Positions 46,767 through 56,776 of a DNA stretch of 64,000 bases are shown piece after piece. Positions within the stretch are counted from its first letter, which is position 1. Each line of letters opens with the position of its first letter. The stretch is from an uncultured bacterium. Lineage in GTDB: Bacteria; Planctomycetota; UBA1135; GCA-002686595. The notes beneath the pieces were generated by a model. It saw only the letters and a list, made by a program, of their open reading frames with translations, did no database searches and was not told the origin of the DNA. The position numbers were made by a program, and so were the translations under genes. The stretch is taken from contig CALSNU010000005.1 in the NCBI GenBank assembly GCA_943787795.1, positions 96,001 through 160,000 of the forward strand, read 5' to 3'.

Positions 46767-47724
46767 TCTCAGGGAGCGTACGACGCTCCGTGTCGGCGGG
46801 CCGGTGGCCTGGCTCCTCGAGCCTGCAGACCCCGAGCAGTTTCGCGAGGCCATCGTGGCCGCTCGCGAGCGAGGGATCCCCATGCGCATCCTCGGAGGAG
46901 GGGCCAACGTGGTGATCGATGACTCGGGGCTCGAGGGCGTCGTCATCTCGACCGAGCGCCTCAACAGGATCTTTCGCCCGGGGGACCCGAGCGTCGAGGA
47001 GACCCTCGATACACAGCTCCCCTCGGCTCGGGTCGCTCCCGCGAACCCGGCGGATGACCCGCGGCTCGTGGTCTGGAGCGGCGCGCCCCTGCCCAAGCTG
47101 TGCCGGGCCGCGCGGGACCTCGGCTACTCGGGCCTGGAGAAGATGGCGGGCGTCCCCGGGCACGTGGGCGGCGGGATCGCCATGAACGCCGGCGGCAAGG
47201 ACCCGGACGGGACCCTCTGGCAGATGAGCGACGTGGTGGAGCGGATCCGCCTCGTCAACGCGGCGGGGGAGATGGAGGACATCACACGGGACGAGTGGAC
47301 GCCCGAGTACCGGGACGGCCGGCTCGGTGACTCCATCGTGGCAGGGGCGGTGCTGCGCTTCGAGCCCCGCTCGAAGGCCGAGGTCGCCGAGGCCTCCAGG
47401 GAGTACCTGCGTCGCAAGAACGCGGTGCAGCCGGTCACTGAGCGCAGCGCTGGCTGCGTGTTCAAGAACCCCGACCCTGAGCGTTCCGGCGGCAAGACCG
47501 CCGGGCAGCTCGTGGACGAGGCCGGCGGCAAGGGCCGCCGCCGGGGAGAGGCGACGATCTCCGAGCGGCACGGGAACTTCCTCATCAACCGCGGTGCCGC
47601 GACGGCGGCGGACGTGTTCGGGCTGATCGAGGAGGTCCAGGACCTGGTCGCGCAGCGCGCGGGCGTGGAGCTCGAGTGCGAGGTCAAGCTCTGGCGCGAC
47701 GACGAGGGGCGCGCGGGGTCCTAG
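46732..47724 (+). CDS. murB: UDP-N-acetylenolpyruvoylglucosamine reductase
   Basis: TLRVGG, GGGAN, PGHVGG...MNAG, SAGCVFKNP, HGNF, LECEVK. Confidence 0.95.
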   Translation: MQWPCATLPGADLRERTTLRVGGPVAWLLEPADPEQFREAIVAARERGIPMRILGGGANVVIDDSGLEGVVISTERLNRIFRPGDPSVEETLDTQLPSARVAPANPADDPRLVVWSGAPLPKLCRAARDLGYSGLEKMAGVPGHVGGGIAMNAGGKDPDGTLWQMSDVVERIRLVNAAGEMEDITRDEWTPEYRDGRLGDSIVAGAVLRFEPRSKAEVAEASREYLRRKNAVQPVTERSAGCVFKNPDPERSGGKTAGQLVDEAGGKGRRRGEATISERHGNFLINRGAATAADVFGLIEEVQDLVAQRAGVELECEVKLWRDDEGRAGS

Positions 47725-48353
47725 CCGCGGTCCCGGAACCTCGCGCGGATCGACTCGACGATCGCGGGAGGCGCCTTCCTCAACGAGCCGCAGTCGAAGG
47801 GCGGGGCGGGGTCGTACTCGATGCTCAGCTGCAGGGTCATGGCGAGCTCGTCCCCGGCGGTCCGTGCCGCGAAGTCGAGGGCCATGTCGATACCGGCGGA
47901 GACGCCGGCTGCGGTGATGTACTTCCCGCTCGTCACGGCGCGCCGCTCAGTGGGGATCGCACCGTACTCGGCGAGGCGCTCCAGTGAGACCCAGTGGGTC
48001 GTGGCCTCACGCCCCTCGAGGAGCCCTGCGGCGGCGAGGACCATGGCCCCCGTACAGACAGACATGGTCGTCGAGGTCGTCCGGTCGATCCGACGCACCC
48101 ACTCCAGGAGCCCCTCGTCGCTCTCCAGGCGTCGGGTCCCAAAGCCGCCGGGCATGAGCAGCACGTCTGCGCGCTCGATCTCATCACGGCCGGCGTCGCA
48201 GACCATGGCGAGGGCGCCGTTGTCCGTCCTCGCGGTCCCGCGCTCCGGGCCGACGAAGCGTACGTTGGCCCCTGGGAGGCGCGTCAGGATCTCATAGGGG
48301 CCGACGGCGTCGAGGGCCGTGATCCCGTCAAACAGGTAGATGACGATGTCCAT
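47721..48353 (-). CDS. DJ-1/PfpI-family protein (InhA-like)
   Basis: MDIVIYLFDGITALDAVGP, PGG, SVCTGA, ATTHW, AGVSAGID, IEYDPAPPFDCG; this is the real 3' part of the long 895-aa ORF. Confidence 0.9.
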   Translation of the reverse strand: MDIVIYLFDGITALDAVGPYEILTRLPGANVRFVGPERGTARTDNGALAMVCDAGRDEIERADVLLMPGGFGTRRLESDEGLLEWVRRIDRTTSTTMSVCTGAMVLAAAGLLEGREATTHWVSLERLAEYGAIPTERRAVTSGKYITAAGVSAGIDMALDFAARTAGDELAMTLQLSIEYDPAPPFDCGSLRKAPPAIVESIRARFRDRG

Positions 48354-48575
48354 GTGGTTGACCTCCGGGTCGAGCCAGATCATACGGAGCCCGAGCGGGG
48401 GCCACGGACACCGGCGCCATCGGCCGAGAAATGCTGGCGGGAGCACAGGGAACCGGTGGACGGAGGGTCTAGACTCTGCCTTCAATCTCTCCACGAGGCC
48501 GCCGACCGGGAGCGCCCTCGTCTCCAGAGCCCTCAGGTGGGGGGCTGTTGGAGCCAACGATCCCGCGACAAGAAG

Positions 48576-50399
48576 ATGACTCAGGTAGATCCGGTTCCTC
48601 AGGTCGAGGGGCCCTTTCCCTTGTCGACGCTCCGACACTCGGTGGCCCACCTCATGGCCTCCGCGGTCCAGAAGCTGATCCCCGGCGCGCAGTTCGGCTT
48701 CGGGCCGTCCATCGAGCACGGCTTCTACTACGACTTCGATCTGCCGGAGCCGTTGACCGACAAGGACCTGCGGAAGATCGAGAAGGAGATGCGGCGCATC
48801 GCCAAGCGGTCGCCCGCGATCGAGAAGGAGACGCTGACCCGCGAGGAGGCGAAGGCGCGCCTCGAGGGCTGGGGCCAGACCTTCAAGCTCGAGGGGCTCG
48901 ACCTCATTCCCGAGGGCGAGGAGATCACCTTCTACTCCCACGGTGACGGCGACGACCGCTGGGGGGACCTCTGCGAAGGCCCCCACGTGGACTCGCTCAA
49001 GGACCACCAGTTCCACTTCAAGCTCCAGCACGTGGCTGGGGCCTACTGGAGGGGGGACGAGAAGAACCCGATGATGCAGCGCATCTACGGGACCGCCTTC
49101 TGGACCAAGGAGGAGCTGACCGGGCACCTCGAGTGGCTCGAGGAGGTCAAGAAGCGAGACCACCGCAAGCTCGGCACGGACCTCGACCTGTTCAGCGTTC
49201 ACGCCGAGGCGGGCGCGGGCTTCGTCTTCTGGCACCCGAACCTCGGCACCGTCCGGCGCGAGCTCGAGCAGTTCTGGTGGGACCTCCACACGCGCGGCGG
49301 CTACAAGGCGGTCTACACGCCGCATGTCTCGCGCGAGAGCCTCTTCGCGGTCTCGGGCCACCTCGAGAACTACGGCGAGATGATGTACGCGCCCATGGAG
49401 CTCGACGCGTTCCCGTATCGGGTCAAGCCGATGAACTGCCCGGGGCACGCGCTGATCTACAAGGATCGCGGCCGCAGCTACCGGGAGCTCCCCCTGCGCT
49501 GGGCCGAGCTCGGCACGGTCTATCGCTACGAGCGCAGCGGCGTCGTGCACGGGATGCTCCGCGTGCGCGGGTTCACCCAGGACGACGCGCACATCTTCTG
49601 CACGCCGGACCAGCTGGCCGAGGAGATCGCCGGGGTGTGCCGGCTCATCGACAAGGTGCTCACCACCTTCGGCTTCGAGTACAAGGCCTACCTGGCGACT
49701 CGCCCCTCCGAGAAGACGATCGGCGACGAGGCTATCTGGGCCCGCGCCACCGCCTCCCTCGAGGAGGCGGCCAAGATCGTGGGCCTCGAGCTCGAGCTGG
49801 ACGAGGGCGGCGGCGCGTTCTACGGGCCGAAGATCGACTACAAGATCAAGGACGCCCTGGGGCGCGAGTGGCAGAACAGCACCATCCAGTGCGACTTCAA
49901 CCTGCCCGAGCGCTTCGACCTGAACTACACCGACTCCGACGGCGGTCTCAAGCGGCCGATCATGGTGCACCGCGCGATCCTCGGCTCGCTCGAGCGCTTC
50001 GTCGGCGGCCTGATCGAGCACTTCGGCGGCAAGTTCCCCTTCTGGATCGCGCCGACCCAGGTGGCGGTGATTCCGATTCGAGAGGAGCACTCGCCCTACG
50101 CTCGCAAGATCGCGGACGCGCTGGAGTCGGAGCTGTTCCGGGTCGACGCCATGCTGGAGGTCGGGCACATGAACAAGAAGATCAAGCAGGCCCAGAAGGA
50201 GCAGGTGCCCTACATGCTGATCGCCGGCGAGCGAGAGGCCGCGGAGGGTACGGTCGCGGTTCGGCGCCGCGGGACCCGCGAGCAGCAGGTCGTGCCCTTC
50301 GACACCTTCGTGGCGATGATCCGCGGCCTGCGCGAGGAGCGCTCGCTGGAGACGCCCGAGGCGGGCGAGCCTGTCGCGGACGGGAGCGCCGCGGAGTGA
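48576..50399 (+). CDS. thrS: Threonine--tRNA ligase (no N-terminal TGS domain)
   Basis: RHSVAH, DLCEGPH, RDHRKLG, KPMNCPGH, RVRGFTQDDAH, HRAILGSLERF. Confidence 0.97.
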   Translation: MTQVDPVPQVEGPFPLSTLRHSVAHLMASAVQKLIPGAQFGFGPSIEHGFYYDFDLPEPLTDKDLRKIEKEMRRIAKRSPAIEKETLTREEAKARLEGWGQTFKLEGLDLIPEGEEITFYSHGDGDDRWGDLCEGPHVDSLKDHQFHFKLQHVAGAYWRGDEKNPMMQRIYGTAFWTKEELTGHLEWLEEVKKRDHRKLGTDLDLFSVHAEAGAGFVFWHPNLGTVRRELEQFWWDLHTRGGYKAVYTPHVSRESLFAVSGHLENYGEMMYAPMELDAFPYRVKPMNCPGHALIYKDRGRSYRELPLRWAELGTVYRYERSGVVHGMLRVRGFTQDDAHIFCTPDQLAEEIAGVCRLIDKVLTTFGFEYKAYLATRPSEKTIGDEAIWARATASLEEAAKIVGLELELDEGGGAFYGPKIDYKIKDALGREWQNSTIQCDFNLPERFDLNYTDSDGGLKRPIMVHRAILGSLERFVGGLIEHFGGKFPFWIAPTQVAVIPIREEHSPYARKIADALESELFRVDAMLEVGHMNKKIKQAQKEQVPYMLIAGEREAAEGTVAVRRRGTREQQVVPFDTFVAMIRGLREERSLETPEAGEPVADGSAAE

Positions 50400-50441
50400 G
50401 CCCGACACATGGGTAGAGAGCTGGCCGTTCCCGGCCGGCTC

Positions 50442-51476
50442 TCAGCCCATCCAGGGCGCCTCGTAGCGCAGCCCGAGGTTGAGGATCTTCTGGATCAGCT
50501 GCGGGTAGCTGTAGCCCAGCTGCTCGAAGCTCTCTGCGAAGTCCTCGCCGAAGCACAGGTCTGGGTTCGGGTTGGCCTCGAGGATCCAGACCTGACCCTC
50601 GCGGTCCATGCGCATGTCGATGCGGCTGTAGCCCGAGAGCCCGACGGCCCGGTGGATGCGGCGGGCCGTGCGGCGGATGCGCTCGGTGGTGGCGTCGTCG
50701 AGGCCCTCGGCGGGTCCCGTGCGCAGGCCGATCTTGCGCTGATACTCGGGGTCCCACTTCACGCGGCTGGTGGCGATGTTGGCGACCCCGGGGGAGAGGT
50801 CGTCCATGAACAGCTCCCAGATGGGGCTGATCTCCACGCGCTTGTTGCCGAGCACGCCGACGGTGAGCTCTCGGCCCTCGATGTACTCCTCGCAGAGCGC
50901 GCCGGTCCCCACGGTCTCGTGGATGTACGTCACCCGGGTCTGGAGCTGGTCGAGGTCGTGGACGATCGACGCCTGGCTGATCCCCGTGGAAGCATGTTCG
51001 CTCCGCGACTTGACGAAGAGCGGCCAGCGGAGGCCCTTGGGGAGCCGCGGTAGGCGCTTGCCGCGGGGCGCGACGAAGAAGCGTGGGGCGCGGATCCGAT
51101 GGTAGGCGAGGACCTTTTTGAAGAGGGCCTTGTCATTGGCAGCGAGCAGGCCGCGGGGATTGCAGCCGGTGTAGAGCTGCTTCATCAGCTCCAGCCACGA
51201 GACCACGGCCGAGTCGTAGATGCCGGCGTCGTGGAAGTGGGTGAGCAGATTGAAGGCCAGGTGCGGCTTGAGGTCCTTGAGCGCTCGGCGGATCGGCGCG
51301 AGCTCATCGACCACCGGAACGTGGATGACCTCGTGGCCGAGGGCCCTGAGGGTGGTGCAGACATCGAGCTCCTGCTTGATGTCGTTGAGCTCCCTCTCGC
51401 TCAGCCCCTCGACCGACGCTGGCGGCGCGAGGTGGGCGTGCATCAGGACGGCGACGCGGAGCTTGCGCTTGGTCAT
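50442..51476 (-). CDS. D-Ala-D-Ala-ligase-like ATP-grasp protein
   Basis: YTG, DKALFK, PLFVK, STGI, EEYIEGRE, YSRIDMR, LEANPNP. Confidence 0.85.
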   Translation of the reverse strand: MTKRKLRVAVLMHAHLAPPASVEGLSERELNDIKQELDVCTTLRALGHEVIHVPVVDELAPIRRALKDLKPHLAFNLLTHFHDAGIYDSAVVSWLELMKQLYTGCNPRGLLAANDKALFKKVLAYHRIRAPRFFVAPRGKRLPRLPKGLRWPLFVKSRSEHASTGISQASIVHDLDQLQTRVTYIHETVGTGALCEEYIEGRELTVGVLGNKRVEISPIWELFMDDLSPGVANIATSRVKWDPEYQRKIGLRTGPAEGLDDATTERIRRTARRIHRAVGLSGYSRIDMRMDREGQVWILEANPNPDLCFGEDFAESFEQLGYSYPQLIQKILNLGLRYEAPWMG

Positions 51477-52483
51477 CGGTGGTACCTGGGGTGACCCCCG
51501 AAGACGAACTGGGAAGAGAGGGAGGTGAGCAGGATCGCCGAATCCAGCAGGGCGTCTTGCTCGCCGCGCGGGAGCCGAAGGCCCTCCTCGCGGGCGCGCA
51601 GGGTCATCTCCCGGACGACGTGGTCCAGGAGGTATCGGTGCTGTCCGGTGGCGGCAGCGACCTGGCGCACGAGGCGCGCGCGGTGCTTGCGGAGGAACGG
51701 CGCCAGGCGCGGCGCGTTGGCCCGGGAGTCCTCCCCGCGGGGGAAGGAGTGGCGCAGCTGGCCGTTGAAGGCCGGGGTCCCCTCGCTGGCGTAGATCCCC
51801 TTCTTCTGGTCGTAGTACTCGCGGAGGGTCATGCGCACCCGCGCGAGCGGCTCCTCACGGCGGCGCGTGGTCCGGCGGGGGCCCGCTCGACCGACGCTGC
51901 CCATGAGCTCGTGCACGAACCTGAGCTTGTCCAGCGCTGCCCAGCCCTCGTAGCGCTTCCGCCAGCGGCTGCCGGGCCGGAGCCAGACGGCAAAGGTCTC
52001 CGCGAAGTCCTCCAGCGGATGGCTCTGGGCGTACCAGTAATCGAGGTGCTGGACGAAGGCGCGGCTGTTGGGGTCCGGGGTATACGAGCTGCGGTAGGGC
52101 TCGCCGGCGCGGCCGAAGACCTCGCGCCACCGGCGCATCCGCCTGAGGCCGTAGGCGTTGTCCAGGGCGTGGGCAGCCTCATGGCGCATGATCTTCATGC
52201 AGCCCTCGCGGGTCGCGCCCTCGACCTCGAGCATCTGCGTCCGCTCGAGCCGCACGAGCCGCGGGTGGGCGAGGTAGAAGGGGATCGCGAACCCCGTCGC
52301 GTCGTCAGGAGTGAACCACTCGGTGGAGAGCCAGGCGTAGGGCCGGAAGGAGATCGACCGCCGCGCGAGCTCCGCGTGGAGCTCCTCGAGCCGCGCCTGC
52401 AGGGGCGAGGTCTCCAGGGTCAGCCCGAGGTCCTTGATCGAAACGTCGAGGAGCTGGTCGTGGGGGAGGCGGGTCCAATCCAT
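51473..52483 (-). CDS. Putative zinc-binding metallopeptidase
   Basis: HEAAH zincin motif and YAQSHPLEDFAETF; ATGA overlap with the ATP-grasp gene; start may be 52549. Confidence 0.8.
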   Translation of the reverse strand: MDWTRLPHDQLLDVSIKDLGLTLETSPLQARLEELHAELARRSISFRPYAWLSTEWFTPDDATGFAIPFYLAHPRLVRLERTQMLEVEGATREGCMKIMRHEAAHALDNAYGLRRMRRWREVFGRAGEPYRSSYTPDPNSRAFVQHLDYWYAQSHPLEDFAETFAVWLRPGSRWRKRYEGWAALDKLRFVHELMGSVGRAGPRRTTRRREEPLARVRMTLREYYDQKKGIYASEGTPAFNGQLRHSFPRGEDSRANAPRLAPFLRKHRARLVRQVAAATGQHRYLLDHVVREMTLRAREEGLRLPRGEQDALLDSAILLTSLSSQFVFGGHPRYHR

Positions 52484-52577
52484 GGGGAAGGGCCCCGCGG
52501 AGCGAGTGCTCCGCGGGGCCCTTGAGCCTAATGCACGGCCACCGGACATCGCCAGCGGCCGGGCGAGGTCAGGCGAC

Positions 52578-54737
52578 CTACTTGAGGTCGAGGACGCCGG
52601 TGCCGTCCCCGCTCGTGAGGGTCTTGGTGTTGGCGAGGTAGTTCGAGCCCATGGTGAGCATCGTCCTCCAGGGGCGGGAGGTGCGATCACCGCAGAGCCC
52701 GAGGGCCACCACGGCGGTCTCGCGGACGGCGACAGAGTACTTGTCCTCCTTGTCCGTCACGATCTCGCAGAGGATCTCGACGCCGCGCTTGTCCCCGATG
52801 TACCCGAGGGCAGACACGGCCGCGATCTGGCGGGCGTCTCCGTCCTCTTCGTCGAGGGACGAGTTCAGGACCTCCAGCAGGGACTCCGCGACGCTCTCGT
52901 CGCCGAGCATGCCGAGGGCGAGCCCCGTGCGCGTCTGGAGCAACGGCTGCTCATCCGCGTCCACCAAGGTCTCCTGCAGCGACTCGATCGCCTCGCGCGC
53001 GCCGACCATGCCGAGGGACATGGCGACGTAGCCGCGGGCGTCCTCGTCACGGACCTTGTCGAGCTTCTTGAGCAGGCGCGGCGCCGCATCCGGCGTCCCG
53101 CGCAGGCCCATGGCGATCGAGTAGGCGCCCAGGTCCGCGACGCGCCTGGCGGAGCGCATGGAGGACAGGATGGCCGTGTCGACGCCCGAGTCCGGCTCGA
53201 CACCCTTGGCGCGGAGCTCGTGGCCCAGCACGCCGAGGGCGATGGCGGCCCAGGCCTTCTCCTTCTTCTTACCGGAGGAGAGCCCGCGGGTCAGGGTGTT
53301 GCGCACGTCGCCGATGCCGGCGTAGGGCTCATCGCCCTGGCCAGCGTGACCGCCGACCTCCGCGAGGGAGATCATGGCGAAGCGACGCTCCATGTCACCG
53401 CCGCCCTTCATCGAGCGACGGAGGGCCCAGCGGATCCACTTGTCCGTGTTGTCGTTGTCCGCGTCCCCGATGAGCCCGAGGGCGAGGGTGGCGCTCTCAC
53501 GCACCTGACGAGGCTGACGGGCAGACTTCTCGAGGGCGCGCACGAGGACCTCGGAGACGCCCTCCTTCATCCGCTCGGTCATCCCATCCGGACGGGCCGC
53601 GACGAGGCGACCGAGGGTGGTCGCCGTGTGGGCACGCAGGATCGGGTCGAACTCCTCGTCCGCCGTGAAGTACCTCATGAGGTACGTCACCTGCGGGCGC
53701 AGGGAGGTGTGGGGGTCGGGGACGACGCAGGTACCGCAGTAGCAGGCCACCACGTCCTCATCGACCTGAAGGGGCACCAGGCCCAGGGAGATCATCGCTG
53801 CCACGCGGGCATCGTTGGCGTCCGAGGCGTCGTTCTCGAGGATGTCGATCAGCGTCCGGACGACCTGGGACCGGACCGCCTGGTCCGTGCTCCTCGAGCC
53901 GATCATGCCGAGCCCGTACGCCGCGTAGGAGCGCATGGACATCGGGACGCGGGCGGTGGGGTGCTCACCCTCTGGGGAGATGAGCTTGCATCCCTCCTTG
54001 GTGTTGAGGGCGATCTCCCGGAGCATGTCGACGCGTGACGCGTTACCCGTCAGGCCGAGCACGAAGGCCGCCGTCGTGTGCATCTCCTCGGTGCCGTTCG
54101 CGAGGAACCAGTTGGTCACCCAGTCGAACTTGCCCTGGTTCTGACCGCCGACTCGCGTCATGGCGATGAGCGCCGACTGGCAGAACTCGTTGGAGCCGCC
54201 CTTCTCGAGGCCCTTGAGGAGGGCGTCGGAGAGGATCCCGTCGATGACGCGGTCCTGGGCGCGACCGCCCACGGTCTCCTGCTCGCGCTGGCCGCTACCG
54301 AGGTAGAAGTCATCGCTGCCCGTGAAGGCGCGGCCCGTCTGGATGTTCGAGAAGCGGAGGAAGCGGTCCTTGTTGAAGGACCACCACAGCTGCCAGTCGC
54401 TGCTGTCCTCGATTCGCCCGTAGCGGTCGATATCGTAGGGGTCCTGGCCAGGCATCACCGGCAGTCCGCCGAGCGGAATCTCCGGGAGGCCCATGGGAGG
54501 GGGAGACTGGGGTCCAGCGACTTGAGGGCCGGCGCCGCCGCCAGCAGGTCCACTCGCGGGGCCAGGTCCGCCGGCGCCTCCGCCAGCGGGACGCGGTGCG
54601 TCAGCAGGTCGAGCGCCCCCACCGGGGGCGCGGGCTCCACCGCCTCATCATTGGAAGGCGAAGGTCCAGTCGGCGCATCCGATGGCGCCTCCAAGGACCA
54701 CGGCCGTGCGTGCGAGCAGGACGTTGAACGAAGTCAT
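52578..54737 (-). CDS. Exported HEAT-repeat protein with two tandem in-frame UGA codons (candidate Sec30-Sec31 selenoprotein), 719 aa
   Basis: ATG 54737 with AGGGAGAG RBS and signal peptide, in frame (81 codons) with ORF 52578..54494 across TGA TGA at 54650-54645; HEAT repeats (AAYGLG, ATLALG, AVVALG); internal CYCGTC. Confidence 0.75.
54603..54644 (-). promoter_or_regulatory. Bacterial SECIS-like stem-loop
   Basis: mRNA after UGAUGA: GGC GGU G GA gccc GCGCCCCC-GGU-GGGGGCGC UC G ACC U GCU, i.e. lower stem, bulge, 8-bp upper stem and GGU apical loop. Confidence 0.65.
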
Positions 54738-55052
54738 GGGGTCTCTCCCTGTGAGGGGGTGGAATCGAGGAGCTAGCGCTTGGCTGCGTCGCGGCGGCGC
54801 ACTCCACGTCTCAAGGATACGAGTCTGAGGGGATCCAATCGAGGCAATGAGTGGATTCGACGCCCCTGCCTTTGGGAAGCGCCACGCGACCAGACTGTTG
54901 CGGGGAAAAAGTGGTTTCTGACCCGTTCCGGGGCGGAAAGGGGGGCGCTGCGGGTCTACCATGCGGCCTGCCGCGGGACGGGCCCTTTCGTCCGCCGCGT
55001 GGCTTGCCCGAAATGCTTCGCTGCGTGGCTCGTTCTGAGCACGCGCGGAGGT

Positions 55053-56776
<1,724 letters not shown>

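Follow-up and report, generated by a model that had tools for sequence, protein, structure and literature searches.

The 64,000-nucleotide (nt) stretch analysed here, referred to as the window, comprises positions 96,001 to 160,000 of contig CALSNU010000005.1 (assembly GCA_943787795.1) from an uncultured planctomycete. Between 54737 and 52578 on its minus strand lies what is very probably, on comparison with related sequences, a single gene for a 719-residue exported selenoprotein with two adjacent selenocysteine (Sec, U) codons. Read directly, the frame runs from ATG 54737 through MTSFNVLLARTAVVLGGAIGCADWTFAFQ to TGA 54650-54648 and TGA 54647-54645 and then into GGGARAPGGG...PPPMGLPEIP; no frameshift and no further stop (translation table 11) separates the UGA pair from a 638-amino-acid (aa) open reading frame (ORF) of HEAT repeats at 54494..52578. 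The earlier note on this DNA had described the same frame, which was confirmed from the sequence, and had expected gene callers to truncate the gene. That expectation was borne out: a search with residues 1-135 showed that public protein records list only truncated forms of 638 aa and 636 aa, named "hypothetical protein."

Starting at ATG 54737, the product would carry a Sec-type signal peptide (Sec here in the sense of the secretion pathway). By eye, all orthologs showed features suggestive of export: a start bearing K or R led into a hydrophobic core, and an A-x-A motif immediately preceded (F)Q(G)-[C/U]-U; no twin-arginine motif was seen on the same inspection. Type I signal peptidase would be expected to cleave after the A-x-A-like T-F-A, giving a mature N-terminus of F-Q-U-U-G-G-G, and the mature proteins of other genera would begin Q-G-C-U-G-P or Q-G-U-U-G-G. 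A lipoprotein reading of L-G-G-A-I-G-C was rejected; the presumed lipobox residue, Cys21, was absent in loci L028 and L031. The features of the gene are collected in Table 1.

Table 1. Features of the candidate selenoprotein gene, in window positions.
Feature	Position	Strand	Basis or remark
Shine-Dalgarno-like AGGGAGAG	54743..54750	-	5 nt before ATG 54737; read from sequence, putative function
Signal peptide, residues 1-27, MTSFNVLLARTAVVLGGAIGCADWTFA	54657..54737	-	Orthologs and variation at codon position 3
First in-frame UGA, codon 30, putatively read as Sec; Cys (TGC) in orthologs of other genera	54648..54650	-	
Second in-frame UGA, codon 31, putatively read as Sec; TGA in 32/32 orthologous genomes	54645..54647	-	
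Element like a selenocysteine insertion sequence (SECIS) inside the coding sequence: lower stem, internal loop/bulge, apical 8-base-pair stem, GGU loop	54603..54644	-	Fold and covariation
Gly/Pro-rich disordered tether, residues 32-99, including conserved [W/M]-G-x-P at annotated ATG 54494	54441..54644	-	
HEAT/PBS-lyase-like alpha-solenoid, residues 100-719	52581..54440	-	Pfam, predicted structure, conserved columns
C-x-C-G-x-C motif (C332, C334, C337) in a long inter-repeat loop	53727..53744	-	Row comparison and predicted structure
True stop codon TAG	52578..52580	-	Read from sequence

Orthologs and the exchange of cysteine and selenocysteine

The read-through protein served as query against 41 relatives, 151 genomes from the family and 251 from the order, supplemented by two additional fetches. 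In 32 genomes, all of the same planctomycete family, an ortholog kept one or two in-frame TGA codons directly after the signal peptide. The site was Sec-Sec (UU) in 19 genomes and Cys-Sec (CU) in 13. The UU genomes belonged to the window's genus (11), genus g4 (2), genus g52 (4) and part of genus g34 (3), while the CU genomes came from eight genera, including the rest of g34. Among 30 scanned loci the hexamer was TGATGA in 18 and TGCTGA in 12, the Cys codon being TGC in all 12, and the 13th CU locus (L088) was likewise TGC-TGA. Trp, Arg and Gly were not found at the site in any ortholog with an intact N-terminus.

The sequence around the site was also kept. Contexts took the forms "...AFQ-UU-GGG," "...AAQG-UU-GGG" and "...AQG-CU-GP"; Q-G-C-U-G-P occurred in 10 of the 13 CU genomes, and the exceptions were G-C-U-G-G, A-C-U-S and R-C-U-G. 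Ortholog identity to the window's protein reached down to approximately 40%, and 19 genomes, at protein identities as low as 58%, shared an identical TGATGA. From the last UGA to the HEAT anchor the tether measured 147-240 nt, with signal peptide, UGA and HEAT domain in one frame in 32/32 genomes. At the level of the order (E <= 1e-45), TGA-bearing orthologs were found only in the window's family (21 of 88 genomes with a match), and there was no match in 162 genomes of nine other families at this threshold, which would miss distant forms. A pattern scan of contigs returned 12 loci, 10 of which were orthologs already known; the other two (L044 and L046) were discarded as chance matches.

A tree was built from the HEAT domain alone, with the N-terminal trait excluded (51 rows, 619 columns; quick IQ-TREE run, LG+G4 model, branch support by the Shimodaira-Hasegawa-like approximate likelihood ratio test, SH-aLRT). 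Three loci without an N-terminus (L027, L034 and L060) and one duplicate (L058, of L032) were left out. The Sec clade contained 35 rows (SH-aLRT 99), and its basal lineages were CU. The UU sequences formed three clades kept apart by well-supported branches, each with a CU sister or neighbour, and at least three changes are therefore needed. The simplest reading of these sequences is an ancestral Cys-Sec state from which the first codon passed from TGC to TGA three times independently, each time by a single C-to-A change.

Substitutions among five close orthologs (L021-L025) were then sorted by codon position. Within the signal peptide there were seven variable columns, at codon positions 1/2/3 in the ratio 0/1/6. 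Between the UGA pair and ATG 54494 (150 nt) the variable columns fell 2/3/15 in the frame of the UGAs; the corresponding counts for the 150 nt preceding ATG 54737 were 47/45/47. The ratio of nonsynonymous to synonymous substitution rates (dN/dS) ranged from 0 to 0.22 for the tether and from 0.04 to 0.12 for the HEAT domain. From the third-position pattern around the UGA pair and the low dN/dS it follows that the sequences flanking the pair are translated in the same frame.

A competing TTG-initiated ORF of 79 aa (54694..54455, "EAVEPAPPVGALDLL...") had, by eye, a higher GC content at third codon positions in the Gly/Pro stretch, and two compensating frameshifts were therefore suspected in place of read-through. 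This candidate was rejected because the substitutions among the close orthologs sit at third positions of the UGA frame.

The intergenic region 54738-55132 separates the gene from thiC, which is divergent (55133-56776, plus strand), and 139 of 150 columns upstream of ATG 54737 were variable among the close orthologs, which looks like strain variation in a promoter region. One RNA-library contig departed from the window exactly at 54741.

The stretch was present in marine metagenome contigs of 13 studies. No difference at 54645-54650 was listed in any of four runs, and DNA contigs from two other studies were identical across TGATGA (X3 record 14, covering 54433-54900, and X6 record 18, covering 54607-54900).

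The hairpin and the selenium machinery

Directly after the UGAs, GCGCCCCC (54631-54624) and GGGGGCGC (54620-54613) pair in a perfect stem of 8 base pairs (bp). The GGU loop between them (54623-54621) begins 24 nt downstream of the first UGA and 21 nt downstream of the second; weaker lower pairing extends to 54603. A hairpin was found in 30/30 orthologs scanned, with a best local stem of 5-9 bp and a 3-nt loop (GGU in 25, GUG in five) that started 18, 19, 21 or 22 nt after the last UGA. Three more loci showed the same hairpin by eye: L085 (with one mismatch), L087 and L088.

The 30 ortholog stem-loops were aligned (alignment A1; the rows are related genomes, and the five GUG-loop rows align imperfectly). 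Across the 8-pair helix 89.2% of cells were paired, a share that shuffling lowered to 70.9 +/- 2.3. Both partners had changed in five of the eight pairs and in 31 individual cells; shuffling gave 11.3 +/- 2.4 such cells, and none of 500 shuffles reached 31. The covariation score was 0.471 and fell to 0.056-0.104 when the 3' partners were slid by one to three columns. Columns 10 and 18 held the following pairs: CG 8, GC 7, AU 3, UA 2, UG 2 and GU 1. One of these columns opens the codon that precedes the loop (Pro CCC, Ala GCC, Thr ACC or Ser UCC), and its partner is the synonymous wobble base of the Gly codon on the other side (GGG, GGC, GGU or GGA). Protein selection is unable to account for the covariation of this pair.

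The window's genome (G000; 4.7 Mb in eight contigs, 85% complete) encoded the complete selenium machinery, with all four components above curated cut-offs: selA (457 bits), selB (350 bits), selD (327 bits) and the selenocysteine tRNA, selC (69 bits). The selD gene has an in-frame TGA of its own, in A-C-A-G-U-A-A-K. It is adjacent to selA (G000:C5:184589-187201; L001 and L020) on the same contig as the window, approximately 35 kb from the gene described here.

G000 was also scanned for candidate selenoprotein genes, in which an in-frame TGA had to be followed at 15-25 nt by a G/U-loop hairpin and flanked on both sides by a coding signal. The scan gave 24 candidates; 10 were sent to Pfam, and in six of these the UGA fell within the redox motif characteristic of a known family, namely: AhpC/TSA-Redoxin (W-U-x-x-C), Rdx (C-x-x-U), an FdhA-type molybdopterin oxidoreductase, two Thioredoxin_7 proteins, and CMD (C-x-x-U). 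Their UGA-to-loop spacings were 24, 22, 19, 22, 18 and 24 nt, within the bounds set by the 15-25 nt scan window. In the HEAT family the spacing in CU genes was 18 or 21 nt (19 with a GUG loop), and in UU genes the loop started 18 or 21-22 nt after the last UGA and 21 or 24-25 nt after the first. Both UGA spacings lie inside the known-family range of G000 (18-24 nt), so that one hairpin could plausibly serve both codons.

The earlier note had proposed two adjacent Secs near the mature N-terminus, on a Gly/Pro tether, decoded by one SECIS with an 8-bp stem and a GGU loop 21-24 nt from the UGAs. The hairpin is present as described, and the proposal is supported by the UU/CU orthologs, the covariation and the machinery. 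The checks that it had named came out in the same direction: selA, selB, selC and selD are all in the genome, codons 30-31 of homologs are TGA/TGA or TGC/TGA, TGATGA recurs in DNA contigs of two other studies, and the N-terminal 29 residues are conserved in that the signal peptide is kept.

The scan turned up further candidates of a different kind. Three genes for FG-GAP / ASPIC-UnbV repeat proteins (L109, C2:619320-620624; L110, C3:275291-279001; L111, C8:4493-7957) each had a single in-frame UGA that a G/U-loop hairpin followed at 18-19 nt, with a coding signal on both sides of the UGA. The context was U-S-x-(F/Y)-W-R-H-V-V in two and N-N-W-U-C-I-G in the third, and these proteins may be another unlisted selenoprotein family. 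A small exported-looking ORF with no Pfam match (L108, C4:265387-265986) had two candidate Sec codons approximately 80 codons (about 240 nt) apart, in the contexts G-K-G-U-S-A-G-K-K and P-G-L-T-U-S-D-T (rows C4 - 529718 and C4 - 529958), with a hairpin after each.

Protein architecture, paralogs and neighbouring genes

Only HEAT families matched the protein: Pfam HEAT_2 (PF13646; 8e-21, 74.6 bits against a cut-off of 27.7) and HEAT_PBS (PF03130; 4.4e-17, 61.1 bits against a cut-off of 20.9). In NCBIfam the phycobilin lyases CpcE/F and NblB fell far below threshold (33 bits against 300 and 23 against 330), a similarity at the level of the repeat, and the other matches were sub-threshold HEAT models. 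AlphaFold2, run on a 35-row alignment (A2), gave a mean predicted local distance difference test score (pLDDT) of 81 and a predicted template modelling score of 0.80. Residues 14-99 were predicted to be disordered (pLDDT < 50), and a confident alpha-solenoid extended from approximately residue 100 to 719. The loop that holds C-x-C-G-x-C (319-345) had a block pLDDT of 89-96. Foldseek against the PDB returned generic solenoids only (alphaRep, proteasome Rpn1/Rpn2, beta-catenin and karyopherin; alphaRep and Rpn2 were best), and the ESM Atlas returned only generic planctomycete HEAT clusters. Conserved motifs of the solenoid were W-Q-L-W-W-x-F-N-K at its entry and N-Y-x-A-x-T-x-T-L-T...G-x-L-D at the C-terminus.

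The tri-Cys motif followed the Sec clade. C-x-C-G-x-C was present in 24/24 Sec-clade rows and in 0/11 non-Sec "HGG" paralogs. The 24 rows include L063 ("Q-G-S-C") and L090, in which U has been lost and one Cys lies in the tether of each. The non-Sec paralogs, several per genome, share the plan of signal peptide, short N-terminal motif, Gly/Pro tether and HEAT domain in one uninterrupted ORF. At 31-37% identity (e.g., G000:C6:239383-241440, L079), they have in common with the orthologs W-x-(F/L)-W-W-x-F-N-K, about 600 HEAT residues and the conserved C-terminus, but they start with H-G-G-(T/S)-Y-R-G-P-G-D-T-V-P-P where the orthologs have [C/U]-U, and they lack C-x-C-G-x-C. In the non-Sec paralogs, e.g., at L079:1477-3552 and L091 (G000:C6:233000-248000), an invariant S-x-G and then H-G-G-(T/S)-Y-R-G-P-G-D-T-V-P-P-G-G came directly after the signal peptide; cleavage after the G would expose an N-terminal His. 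Paralog genes stood in tandem arrays in several genomes, e.g., at G019:C364 and G040:C10.

A distant paralog from the window's genus (L089, G014:C6:29500-33500; 24% identity) had a single in-frame UGA directly after its signal peptide (F-G-Q-A-U-P-P-A-P), with a GGU 18 nt downstream inside a larger loop. This suggests a second, independent N-terminal Sec in the HEAT family.

Neighbouring genes were of a housekeeping kind (the divergent thiC, thrS, an ATP-grasp Ddl-like gene and murB), and sulfatases and DAO also occurred across the window and eight orthologous loci. Downstream in the window were a 405-aa ORF with a weak Peptidase_Mx match (51473-52690, minus strand; 8e-07) and a D-Ala-D-Ala-ligase-like ATP-grasp gene (50442-51476, minus strand). 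The same pair also followed the G016 ortholog (L101), and the ATP-grasp gene also lay beside the G071 ortholog (L095). At 47721-50408 long ORFs on opposite strands overlapped, both with Pfam support: threonyl-tRNA synthetase at 47994-50399 (plus strand) and a DJ-1/PfpI domain at approximately 47867-48344, at the 3' end of an 895-aa ORF (minus strand). The two genes probably abut near 48400, the long ORFs being GC-rich artefacts.

Alternative explanations, proposed decoding and meaning

If the UGA-UGA were a real double stop, it would end a 29-residue leader or upstream ORF, and a cytoplasmic HEAT protein would start separately at ATG 54494. Tandem stops are a common fail-safe terminator, the public records hold only the two short forms, and ATG 54494 does exist in the window's genus. 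Against two products stands the coding-like evolution, in the UGA frame, of the 150 nt between the UGAs and that ATG. The Met there is the M variant of [W/M]-G-x-P, and because Trp replaces it in most other genera ATG 54494 is not a conserved start. The frame, moreover, is continuous in 32 genomes despite indels in the tether, the first UGA is Cys in 13 of them, and the paralogs show this architecture within single ORFs, all of which makes separate products very unlikely indeed. Nearly as improbable is read-through without selenocysteine, in which a near-cognate or suppressor tRNA would insert Trp, Cys or Arg while the hairpin slows termination. Downstream structures that stimulate stop read-through exist in other systems, but here the site alternates only between TGA and the Cys codon TGC, the classic Sec/Cys signature, the hairpin has a G/U apical loop and a spacing within the range of the known-family genes in G000, and the Sec machinery is complete. 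The idea that 54645-54650 reflects a pseudogene, a misassembly or a sequencing error has nothing in its favour beyond two stops inside an otherwise open frame; TGATGA in 19 genomes and in contigs of two other studies, the domain dN/dS and purifying selection on the signal peptide reduce it to a negligible chance.

A different kind of alternative keeps the same exported Sec-Sec gene and changes its role. The Sec pair would form a fixed ligand set with C-x-C-G-x-C for a metal or metalloid (Cu, Hg, Zn, Ni, As, or Se/S), and the protein would be a periplasmic scavenger, chaperone, sensor or structural cap. Three Cys and one or two Sec suit soft metals, the two sites co-occur in 24/24 rows, the N-terminal His that the paralogs may expose is a typical metal ligand, and CU dipeptides have been linked to organometallic chemistry (bioRxiv 10.1101/2022.07.06.499078, in the passages drawn on). 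No metal-handling genes lie nearby, however, and the predicted disorder of the approximately 70-residue tether suggests reach and not a fixed site. We regard this role as a genuine possibility, though a somewhat doubtful one, and the present evidence does not separate it from the relay model described below.

Several points weigh against a tandem-Sec protein of the kind proposed, or limit it. Its basis is comparative (gene structure, conservation, Cys/Sec exchange, covariation, machinery and two-site co-occurrence), and from this we infer Sec insertion at both codons, export, the cleavage site and a relay or metal function. Work in Escherichia coli has found the UGA-to-SECIS spacing to be restrictive. 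The single-sequence fold was not significant (z = -1.27; 25 of 200 shuffles folded equally well, at 70% GC), and the case for a hairpin beyond chance rests on the ortholog comparison because a lone fold is uninformative at this GC content. The hairpin also overlaps a conserved x-G-G-G peptide, so that part of its sequence conservation is protein-driven, and the A1 windows were cut around the best-pairing loops, which inflates the percentage paired and leaves the compensatory changes and the slide control unaffected. An RNA-library contig (X16 record 5, 54607-54741) bridges TGATGA with 38 and 91 flanking letters; it is possibly carried-over DNA, hence it was not counted as evidence of expression. 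An all-Cys (CC) full-length homolog was not found when residues 1-135 were compared with 5.8 billion proteins and 8000 candidates were scored; the two truncated forms matched, and the limited reach of this search makes it no evidence for the absence of CC. The nearest Cys counterpart was the single-Cys form L063 (Q-G-S-C). The genomes are related metagenome-assembled genomes, whose counts are non-independent. The tree was made by a quick method, and its root on the non-Sec paralogs was weak (support 16); because the basal split is so poorly supported, CU-to-UU is only the presumed direction of change. As to function, no conserved redox or metal partner gene was found near the gene in the window and eight orthologous loci.

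In the decoding that we propose for the exported Sec-Sec protein, both adjacent UGAs (54650-54645) would be read as Sec by SelB and the selenocysteine tRNA, and a single SECIS hairpin would recruit the SelB complex for both codons. After one 3-nt translocation, a second complex of SelB, GTP and selenocysteinyl-tRNA would presumably bind the same hairpin. The product would hold a vicinal selenol pair two to three residues from its mature N-terminus, at the tip of the disordered Gly/Pro tether on the HEAT solenoid. A tethered C-U or U-U pair may form a reversible selenenylsulfide, a diselenide or a soft-metal chelate, and may shuttle between outside substrates and the tri-Cys site of the solenoid. 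For a G-C-U-G or U-U arm that cooperates with the tri-Cys site, a redox relay and a soft-metal hand-off would be about equally compatible with the data. Taken as a whole, this model (one SECIS programming two consecutive Secs, an N-terminal vicinal diselenide on an exported HEAT protein, a design evolved three times from Gly-Cys-Sec-Gly, and a swinging arm in the periplasm by which electrons, a soft metal or a chalcogen are exchanged with C-x-C-G-x-C) is put forward tentatively, as a working model that may well prove wrong in part.

A relay is suggested because the vicinal pair near the N-terminus, the flexible tether and the constant presence of the tri-Cys site resemble the tail of thioredoxin reductase. 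In the mammalian enzyme, according to passages of PMC9313168, a flexible C-terminal Gly-Cys-SeCys-Gly tail swings between the CVNVGC dithiol and substrates. Shared with it are G-C-U-G in the CU orthologs (U-U-G in the window's genus), a flexible chain end and a second Cys site in the body, CVNVGC there and C-x-C-G-x-C here. The present protein differs in that the pair is N-terminal, the protein is bacterial and exported, it has no flavin or NADPH domain and no homology, and in the window's genus the Cys is now a second Sec. Since HEAT families alone match and there is no FAD/NADPH body, it is not a member of the thioredoxin reductase family and the likeness is one of working only.

Among bacterial genes with an intragenic SECIS (the fdhF type, as portrayed in passages of PMC13188914), a UGA, a G/U-loop hairpin within approximately 20 nt, selA/B/C/D and Cys homologs are common features. 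Here, by contrast, two adjacent UGAs share one hairpin, and both Secs would be placed at the mature N-terminus of an exported HEAT-solenoid carrier, not in the active site of a thioredoxin fold or a metalloenzyme. Haft and Gwadz described CU/UC selenoproteins with an organometallic link, noting that gene callers truncate them at UGA and that some have signal peptides (bioRxiv 10.1101/2022.07.06.499078). In their CU proteins, to judge from the passages drawn on, Sec replaces one Cys of a CC pair. The proteins themselves differ, being MerB-like, ABC transporter components and HgcA from anaerobes, and the main-text passages contain no UU and no HEAT scaffold. In the delta-1 symbiont of Olavius, a rhodanese-related sulfurtransferase has a UxU motif in which a neighbouring Cys was converted to a second Sec, with the UGAs a few nt apart (PMC1976440, in part). 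One residue separates the Secs of that cytoplasmic protein of rhodanese fold, whereas here they are adjacent and recur in three clades.

The earlier note had known of no HEAT-repeat selenoprotein of this kind, and none was found in the literature searched. The words "HEAT" and "Planctomycet" were absent from the main texts, supplements being outside the scope, of a 2026 review of the prokaryotic selenoproteome (PMC13188914), BSepDB (PMC13326102) and deep-Sep (PMC12013277). Literature searches, with subscription journals and supplements likewise outside their scope, gave no HEAT-repeat or planctomycete tandem-Sec protein and nothing relevant for phrases on adjacent, consecutive or vicinal Sec; matches to UGAUGA were set aside as unrelated uses of the string. 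One planctomycete genome paper lists selenoproteins only in its supplement (PMC4807772). On the sequence comparisons, the gene most likely belongs to a new family of selenoproteins and uses bacterial Sec decoding in a new variant, not described for bacteria in the literature searched.

If true, it would provide a naturally occurring, conserved example of a pair of neighbouring Sec codons decoded with a single bacterial SECIS, and would open to test the tolerance of SelB for UGA-to-SECIS spacing, the reloading of a second SelB complex on that one hairpin following a translocation of 3 nt, and the cost in yield. That the first Cys was repeatedly upgraded to Sec argues for a selective advantage, in this setting, of a diselenide or a pair of selenolates over a selenenylsulfide. 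Both the export and the chemistry are invisible in current annotation because gene callers and records truncate the gene to a "hypothetical protein" without a signal peptide. The range of selenoproteins would be widened beyond the thioredoxin-fold and metalloenzyme classes to an exported protein of aerobic marine planctomycetes that carries its selenium on a disordered tether. Should the swinging-arm reading also be true, these planctomycetes would have a bacterial extracytoplasmic analogue of the selenolthiol tail of thioredoxin reductase, built on a non-enzymatic scaffold.

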